From the NCBI RefSeq assembly GCF_044647545.1, contig NZ_CP172818.1: DNA of 64,000 bases; one strand, 5' to 3'. Made by a program: the position numbers and the translations under genes. Source of the DNA: Escherichia coli. GTDB taxonomy: Bacteria; Pseudomonadota; Gammaproteobacteria; Enterobacterales; Enterobacteriaceae. Under the pieces are notes generated by a model. The model saw only the letters and a program-made list of their open reading frames with translations. It ran no database searches and had not been told where the DNA came from. Shown piece by piece: positions 37,623 to 39,361 of this stretch (its first letter is position 1; every line of letters starts with the position of its first letter).

Positions 37623-38782
37623 CTGTTTTATTTATTACGTCGTATCACCACCCTACACTACGCACGCAAAAAAAATATTCCATTTTTGATAAAAAATATA
37701 GAAAAATAAATTTTAAATTTATTAAATTAATTTTTTTTTTTTTAAAAAACAAAATATATAAAAAATTATTTTCTTTATAGAAATTAAAAAAAATTAAACA
37801 TTAAAGGAAAAAATAGAATAAATAAAAAAAAAAAAAATTTTTTTAAAAAATTATAAATATTATATTTTACAATATAACATTATAAAATTCTTTTTAAATC
37901 ATAATAAAAAAAACAAAAACAAAGAATAAAAATAAAAATAAAAAAAGATAATAATGATTATTTTTTATAAACATATGATAAAATGATTAAATTTTAAATA
38001 TTTTAAAAATATAATTATATAAAAAATAAATAAAAAAAAAAAAAATAAAAAAAAAAAAAAAAAAAAAGTTATATTATTTTTATAAAAAAATTATTTAATT
38101 AAACAAAAAAAAAATAAAAAAAGAAAAAATAGATAAAGATAAAGATAAATTAATATAAAAAAAGAAAAAAAAGATAAAATTTGTAACCTAAATTTTATTA
38201 TTTAAAATATTACTAAAAAAGAAAAAGAGAAAAGAAAAAAAAAAAAAGTGAAATGTAGTATATGTAAATAAAAAAAAAAAAAAAAAATTAAAAAAAAAAA
38301 AAAAAAAAAAATAAAAAAAAAAAAAAAAAAAAAAAAAAAAAAAAGAAAAAAGAAAAAAAAAATAAAAAAAAAAAAAAAAAAAAAAAATAATAAATTTTTA
38401 TAAAAAAAAAAAAAGAAATAGAAGAAAAGGAATAAAGAAAAAAAAAAAAAAAAATATAAATATTTTTTTTTTTTTTGTTTTTTGTGTTAGGGTAAATTTA
38501 AAATATAATATAACAAAAAAACTCAAATTTATAATATTATGTGTATATATTTAGTTTAAAGAGTTTTTTAAGAGAAAAGAAAGAAAAGAAAAAAAGAAAA
38601 AATAAATAATGTTTTAAAAATAATTATAACACAAAATAAAAACAAAAAAGTGTTCATGAAGGGAATCGATGTAGAGGATGCACATATAAAAATAAAATTA
38701 AAAATATAACTTTATATATGTTTGTTTTTTTTTCTCAGTTGCGCATCCCAGAGGATAAGAAGGAAGAAGATAAAAGTGGGAG
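37623..38782. other. anomalous low-complexity, extremely A/T-rich block (poly-A dominated), non-coding, not native to this E. coli locus
   Basis: Abrupt composition switch right after the malZ stop; A runs of 22 and 32 nt (38290-38311, 38313-38344); no ORF of 60 aa or more internally; malZ-acpH spacing about 1.16 kb against the few tens of bp I recall; boundaries approximate. Confidence 0.8.
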
Positions 38783-39361
38783 AAGCGCCTTGCGTGACGC
38801 CTGCGCCATCATCCGCGGATAAAACTGCCAGAAGCGGGTTTCGAGGGCGGCATAATGTGCGTTTAAATCGTACCAGGAGTCACGCAGGGCATCCAGACGT
38901 GGGCGACGGCTTGCCATGCCGTTTAACACGTTCTGGATGAAATCCATATCGCGATAGCGCACCAGCCACTGCTCTGACCACAAGTAATTGTTCAGATTGA
39001 TAAAACGTGGCGGTGAGTCCGGCAAAATCGTCATCACTTGCTCGCGGGCATAACAGACAAATTCCTGTAGCGGAAAGTCCGGCGACAGCTGCGACCAGTG
39101 GCGGGAAAGAAAGTGATCCCACATGACATCCAGCGTAATAGGCGCAACGCGGCGCGTTTCACTACGAAACCATTCCCGTGCTTCGCGGACTTCCGGCAGA
39201 TTGTCGGTTAGTACATCAATGCGCCGATGCATATGAATGCCAGCCACGACGTCGGGCGGAAAACTTTCTTCAGGATTTCCGCGTACGAAATCAGCCAGTA
39301 AATTGCCGGAAAGCGAGCTTTCCGCGAGATGGGCTAAATGCAGGTGAGCTAAAAAATTCAT
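38735..39361 (-). CDS. acpH: acyl carrier protein phosphodiesterase AcpH, with an abnormal 15-codon 3' extension
   Basis: 208 aa ORF beginning [17 protein letters not shown]; the AcpH I recall is 193 aa ending ...QASRKAL; here no stop follows (plus-strand 38780-38782 is GAG) and the frame runs on to TGA at 38735-38737. Confidence 0.8.

Follow-up and report, generated by a model that had tools for sequence, protein, structure and literature searches.

An acpH gene without its stop codon next to a garbled malZ–acpH segment in an Escherichia coli chromosome: a probable reconstruction artefact

The acpH gene in the E. coli DNA analysed here (a stretch of 64,000 nucleotides, referred to as the window) is open beyond the codon at which it should end and is closed only within an extremely A/T-rich segment that lies between it and malZ. 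This arrangement raises the question of whether the strain possesses a C-terminally extended AcpH, acquired by the insertion or replacement of DNA at the gene end, or whether the sequence adjoining acpH is not the DNA of the strain at all. The elements of the locus are given below; the native coordinates refer to the corresponding region of FDAARGOS_497 (L001), one of the closest genomes.

35805–37622, plus strand: malZ, intact, with no difference from ECONIH1 up to 37622; its stop codon is the left edge of the anomaly
37623–37900: left part of the anomalous block, a degraded copy of the native sequence 3' of malZ (L001 1824–2270) in the same order, with G and C selectively lost
37901–38783: remainder of the block, low-complexity A/T sequence with undetectable homology
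38783–38784: right junction of the block, abrupt, with 100% identity to the ST648-type reference from 38784 rightwards
38735–38782, minus strand: acpH read-through tail of 15 codons and a TGA, within the right edge of the block
38783–39361, minus strand: canonical acpH CDS, codons 1–193 (ACP phosphodiesterase, PF04336), a 193/193 aa match to WP_001009886
38735–39361, minus strand: acpH ORF as written, 208 aa, from the ORF list

An earlier note on this DNA had claimed that acpH lacks its native stop codon and that the frame continues for 15 codons to a TGA at 38735–38737. This was borne out by both the ORF list and the comparison with reference sequences. The native TGA is missing, the plus-strand positions 38780–38782 being GAG (Leu194 on the minus strand), and the plus-strand TCA at 38735–38737 provides the minus-strand TGA which ends the extended frame. 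Residues 1–193 are identical to those of AcpH from the closest genomes (193/193 with the lineage protein WP_001009886), and 191 of 193 are shared with the K-12 protein, the two differences being N167D and A171D. The nucleotide identity ends at 38784. The sole difference between the acpH CDS and that of the lineage is at 38783, the third base of codon 193 (CTT vs CTC), and is synonymous. In the reference acpH, the TGA follows immediately 3' of codon 193; the replaced stretch ends at 38783 and thus takes out this TGA together with the wobble base of Leu193. The boundary, which had been placed exactly at the acpH stop codon, is therefore correct to one base.

The length of the tail has no significance by itself and corresponds to chance, since random minus-strand entries into the block typically meet the first stop after 14 codons (median), and 49% stay open for at least 15 codons.

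In all other respects, the gene is, to judge from its sequence, an ordinary acpH coding for an HD-type ACP phosphodiesterase of the PF04336 family. We found 1,114 AcpH homologues at E ≤ 1e-40, and PF04336 was present in 120 of the best 120. The canonical length across Enterobacteriaceae is 193 aa, and most of the best 120 of the 1,114 homologues have this length. The invariant alignment columns, including H6, H8, H11, D24, H45 and D49 (the HD-type site), are all kept in the window protein; N-terminal His and Asp residues were tied to AcpH catalysis (Thomas, Rigden and Cronan 2007, cited in PMC8557913). The gene neighbourhood (malZ, acpH, queA, tgt) is also the usual one. Residues 1–193 equal those of the lineage protein, but canonical AcpH (YajB; WP_001009886 in the ST648-type lineage and WP_001009885 in K-12) is terminated by TGA after ...RKAL, whereas the window ORF lacks this TGA and adds 15 residues that are absent in the homologues, to reach 208 aa. 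The canonical length is missed because of the garbled block. The tail is common to none of the best 120 of the 1,114 homologues, an exact-protein lookup of the 208-aa product returned no record, and no sequence among the E. coli genomes searched matched through 38500–38790. By the exact product lookup and the genome search with the junction region, no natural stop-loss allele was found in independent isolates. With a canonical AcpH of 193 aa, no homologue carrying the tail and no E. coli match across the junction, the claim that the stop codon was lost stands.

Sporadic AcpH entries in the databases (P0003, P0007, P0008, P0012 and P0079) have mutually unrelated C-terminal tails or frameshifts. 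Most of these altered-tail entries occur once only, in short contigs of metagenome or run assemblies, and the AcpH entry from Salmonella serovar Glostrup has 233 aa. They are similar to the window ORF in exceeding 193 aa through a disrupted gene end, but each tail is different and none matches that of the window. Stop loss or frameshift at the acpH end therefore recurs as noise or minor variation.

The nature of the block is best judged against the sequence which occupies the same place in related genomes. The closest genomes (ECONIH1, FDAARGOS_497 and others) carry ~1.65 kb in the malZ–acpH gap, including an accessory gene coding for a hypothetical protein of 481 aa (~33% GC; L001 2010–3455 in FDAARGOS_497). 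Of 5,426 complete E. coli genomes, 1,128 possess this gene. The protein belongs to no NCBIfam or Pfam family, and its match to the PADLOC 'Effector/Peptidase' model is marginal (E = 5.5e-4). In all the closest genomes, the accessory gene is intact and acpH has 582 nt. The ~1.65-kb segment is absent from K-12, in which the convergent malZ and acpH genes are merely 4 nt apart (L005 25243–25252). The ST648-lineage sequence 3' of the malZ stop (CTGTTTTATTTATTACG) resembles the K-12 spacer together with the acpH 3' end (CGTTTTATAACG). This resemblance suggests that the accessory gene may have been inserted at the former end of acpH, or within it, and that the present lineage terminus CTC TGA (TTA TAA in K-12) was part of the same event.

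In the window, this segment is replaced by a block of 1,161 nt between the malZ stop (37622) and 38783. Its GC content is ~5–10% with a minimum of 5%; within 37901–38783 it amounts to ~5–17% and climbs to ~30% at the right edge. The block contains 19 homopolymer runs of at least 8 nt, the longest consisting of 32 A, whereas the rest of the window (62.8 kb) has a single 8-nt run. Compared with the native sequence, the block lacks 5 nt immediately 3' of the malZ TAA and then four single G bases. A relationship to the native segment is clear for the left part of the block: blastn aligned 37763–37891 to L001 2127–2266 with 75% identity (E = 4e-10), and the local alignment of the left part with the native sequence scored 98, the maximum among 600 dinucleotide shuffles being 50. 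The retention of the reference bases in this part was 76% for A, 65% for T, 28% for C and 15% for G, and the lost G and C bases were mostly deleted or turned into A. The earlier description of the block as an insertion or replacement is thus not supported, nor is a foreign origin: the left ~280 nt follow the native spacer and accessory gene of the same lineage colinearly, and for the rest no source was found.

Beyond ~37,900, no tile of the block scored above the controls in tiled local alignment with the native segment. The right ~140 nt (38640–38783, ~30% GC) are fairly complex sequence and have no match in the window, the reference genomes, E. coli genomes, plasmids, phages, or metagenome or GTDB contigs. 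E. coli genomes and contigs from metagenomes and GTDB genomes yielded no donor or relative of the block as a whole, and the comparison with plasmids and phages gave marginal low-complexity matches only. The repeat scan detected low-complexity self-similarity but neither a flanking target-site duplication nor terminal inverted repeats. There is no terminator-like site in the block and, according to the ORF list, the ORFs situated entirely inside it do not exceed 42 aa.

Other descriptions of the block were tried and abandoned. The block is not simply the native sequence minus G and C: an A/T-only alignment scored 514 as against 497 ± 9 for shuffles. Removal of G and C was rejected as a full description because this score is barely above that of the shuffles and because the block also gains A and loses T. 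Colinearity over the whole block was weakly above the controls in k-mer chaining, but by tiled local alignment significant homology reached only to ~37,900. A match of 38650–38690 to the end of the accessory gene, seen in global alignment, did not survive controls. A weak second match was observed between 37928–37996 and L001 2177–2240 (score 41; 32 and 34 for the reversed and reverse-complement reference controls). The same native positions are already matched by 37806–37870, and the second match may be an echo or repeat inside the degenerate block.

The block is not the only irregularity in the window. When compared base by base with ECONIH1, the window differs at five places only. There are zero mismatches over 6501–37622 and 38784–64000, and zero substitutions in relation to the ST648-type genome over the ~56.4 kb aligned outside the anomalies. 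The four places other than the malZ–acpH block are as follows.

2112–2114: tauD–hemB spacer, 15 nt missing in comparison with ECONIH1, the left arm of the terminator hairpin lost
3723–6511: K-12 patch, ~2.8 kb identical to K-12 MG1655 (yaiT::IS3) in the ST648-type backbone
45394: yajD–tsx spacer, 4 nt missing immediately 3' of the yajD stop
52446: yajO–dxs spacer, 2 nt missing

The K-12 patch comprises the yaiT 5' part, IS3 and the yaiT 3' part. No difference from K-12 was found over 3726–6511, whereas the flanks are 2–3% divergent from K-12 and identical to ECONIH1. At the left junction, the switch between lineages occurs 2–4 nt from lineage-specific SNPs with one extra base, which creates TAC TGA, i.e. 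a premature stop just past the autotransporter signal peptide. The right junction falls in an 11-nt stretch common to all three sequences. The composite is absent from the complete E. coli genomes searched. Natural recombination as a source of the patch was rejected in view of the left crossover at 2–4 nt from lineage SNPs, the extra base and a junction present in no genome.

The smaller anomalies are just as private. The best full-length match to the tauD–hemB state among the 5,426 genomes was 93.9%, and the best-matching complete genomes, identical to the window over the rest of those flanks, all have the bases lost at 45394 (4 nt) and 52446 (2 nt). None of the five anomalous states was found in the 5,426 complete E. 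coli genomes. Template switching at quasi-palindromes was considered for the small spacer indels and rejected, as the opposite hairpin arm is not copied in the altered spacers. The private deletions of 15, 4 and 2 nt are the left edges of spacers in which K-12 has an extra or replaced segment of 67–139 nt in comparison with the ST648 lineage.

The positions of the anomalies follow the structural differences between the two lineages. Over the same 64 kb, ECONIH1 and K-12 differ by exactly six structural breaks (tauD–hemB, yaiT, araJ–mak, malZ–acpH, yajD–tsx and yajO–dxs), and the five anomalies of the window coincide with five of them. The remaining break is a clean K-12-only segment of ~100 nt and is correct in the window. 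Small indels (up to 4 nt) between the lineages are correct in 36 of 36 cases. Traces of the K-12 state can be recognized at the edges: the 5 nt missing after the malZ stop (AGCAT) correspond to the K-12 state, and the left edge of the yajD–tsx spacer is that of K-12 after a clean deletion. In each of the five anomalies the error affects the left edge, the right one being clean, and because of this regularity the sequence pattern points to a directional process rather than to mutation. A patch identical to the template, anomalies confined to structural differences and edges in the template state, as expected of a template artefact, are all found in the window.

Because the private changes fall exactly on the structural differences from K-12 and because the K-12 patch is perfect, a K-12-templated reconstruction appears to be the best explanation. 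We consider it probable (about 85%) that the loss of the acpH stop codon and the garbled block are an artefact of sequence reconstruction and not biology; in particular, the lost stop is very likely secondary to a stretch of sequence without biological origin. Like all the closest relatives, the real strain most likely has a normal AcpH of 193 aa, with the gene ending GCG CTC TGA, as well as an intact accessory gene. Against the artefact stands the fair complexity of the right ~140 nt of the block. In addition, spacers or alleles at the five sites vary among E. coli in general, and for this reason some of the co-location with K-12 differences could also arise naturally.

The course of events might have been the following. 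The sequence of an ST648-type E. coli would have been reconstructed with K-12 MG1655 as the template or under a strong bias towards it. Alignable positions would have been converted correctly to ST648-type bases, unalignable sequence would have been left as K-12, and complex replacements would have been applied partially. The 1.65-kb insertion would have been rebuilt from its left anchor as a recognizable copy, which would then gradually shed isolated G and C bases and register and collapse to A/T low-complexity filler. This filler would have been joined abruptly to the true sequence at 38783/38784, four bases inside the acpH 3' end, so that the plus-strand TCAG, i.e. the acpH stop and one base, was dropped. 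The extended acpH ORF would have resulted because this join removes the TGA.

The candidate procedures include reference-guided consensus or polishing, variant calls applied to a reference, and model-based infilling. Reference bias and template carry-over resemble the situation in the window in that the reference sequence is kept where the sample is unalignable, as in the K-12 yaiT::IS3 patch, and in that SNPs and small indels are correct and errors occur at structural differences only. Unlike the window, however, reference-guided pipelines would be expected to produce a skipped or an intact insertion, not a degenerate A/T insertion of 1.1 kb. Low-complexity collapse (poly-A drift) resembles the block in the progressive loss of G/C and register and in the long A-runs which start from a correct anchor; it differs in that the right ~140 nt of the block regain complexity and match nothing. 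We know of no standard pipeline documented to emit a poly-A-rich insertion of 1.1 kb, and the mechanism by which the block was formed is a guess.

A failure of consensus or polishing and infilling by a neural or generative model both fit the decay from left to right. A variant of the artefact, which seems possible although we would rather doubt it, is that the block was written by such a model (by infilling or by collapse of a consensus network) and not by a classical reference-guided consensus. The drift from near-correct recall to A-rich low complexity with a hard splice to the true sequence, the K-12 default at uncertain places (K-12 being the best-represented E. coli genome) and the errors at the first spacer bases when read from left to right would all be expected from it. 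Against it, ~56.4 kb of a specific non-K-12 lineage without a substitution would mean that the true sequence was needed as input almost everywhere, and the data do not separate this variant from a pileup or consensus failure.

The readings in which the block is real DNA are much weaker than that of a reconstruction artefact, and to foreign DNA, hypermutation within the cell and natural recombination jointly we would assign a few percent. A genuine foreign replacement, in which A/T-rich DNA of eukaryotic origin (e.g. Dictyostelium or Plasmodium) or an A/T-rich mobile element would have recombined in between malZ and acpH and given a real AcpH with a 15-residue tail, is highly improbable. The intergenic DNA of very A/T-rich eukaryotes is superficially similar to the block in composition (5–10% GC, long A-runs), synteny is kept in the flanks, and the block ends sharply towards acpH. 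The left ~280 nt, however, are colinear with native E. coli sequence; there is no target-site duplication, no terminal inverted repeat and no internal ORF longer than 42 aa, and searches of E. coli genomes, plasmids, phages, and metagenome and GTDB genome contigs gave no match. A foreign replacement would also leave the four companion anomalies, among them the K-12 patch, unexplained. A Dictyostelium- or Plasmodium-like insert was thus rejected on the basis of the colinearity of the left part and the missing database match.

The native derivation of the left part and the preferential loss of G and C (C 28%, G 15%, A 76% and T 65% kept) would be compatible with local hypermutation in the cell, biased from G/C to A/T and extending up to the acpH stop, accompanied by deletion of the accessory gene. 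Such a process is nevertheless just as hard to accept. Deletions and transversions to A make up most of the changes, in contrast to the transitions typical of deaminases, so that hypermutation of the deaminase or DGR type was rejected on its substitution spectrum; T is lost as well and A is gained, i.e. the sequence drifts to poly-A, and A-runs of 20–32 nt are far beyond anything in the rest of the window. Zero substitutions in ~56.4 kb outside the anomalies are incompatible with a mutator background. The confinement at the acpH stop is too sharp for any known process, and we know of none that is bounded to the base at the stop codon of a neighbouring gene. It is equally hard to credit that the block is a real 1.1-kb tract of ~5–10% GC with A-runs of up to 32 nt, formed in place by sharply bounded G/C loss and deletion acting on the accessory gene and giving AcpH a 15-residue tail.

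The reconstruction artefact, as the preferred reading, also determines how the gene product is to be regarded. The extended AcpH that the earlier note had proposed is encoded as written, i.e. AcpH with 15 further residues, but the proposal assumes that the block is real DNA, and the evidence favours an artefact.

The main consequence is a quality flag: at structural variants, the window, and probably the whole source record, appears to be partly template-derived and partly garbled. No gene call at these places should be read as a feature of the strain, be it the extended acpH, the lost accessory gene, the early stop in the yaiT-like autotransporter or the changed terminator hairpins. For the biology of E. 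coli, the finding is minor. According to PMC8557913, AcpH is not essential and has an unclear role in the cell; the tail represents read-through by chance, and even a real AcpH tail would have modest consequences. If sequencing reads proved the block to be real, it would represent an unprecedented sequence for an enterobacterial chromosome.
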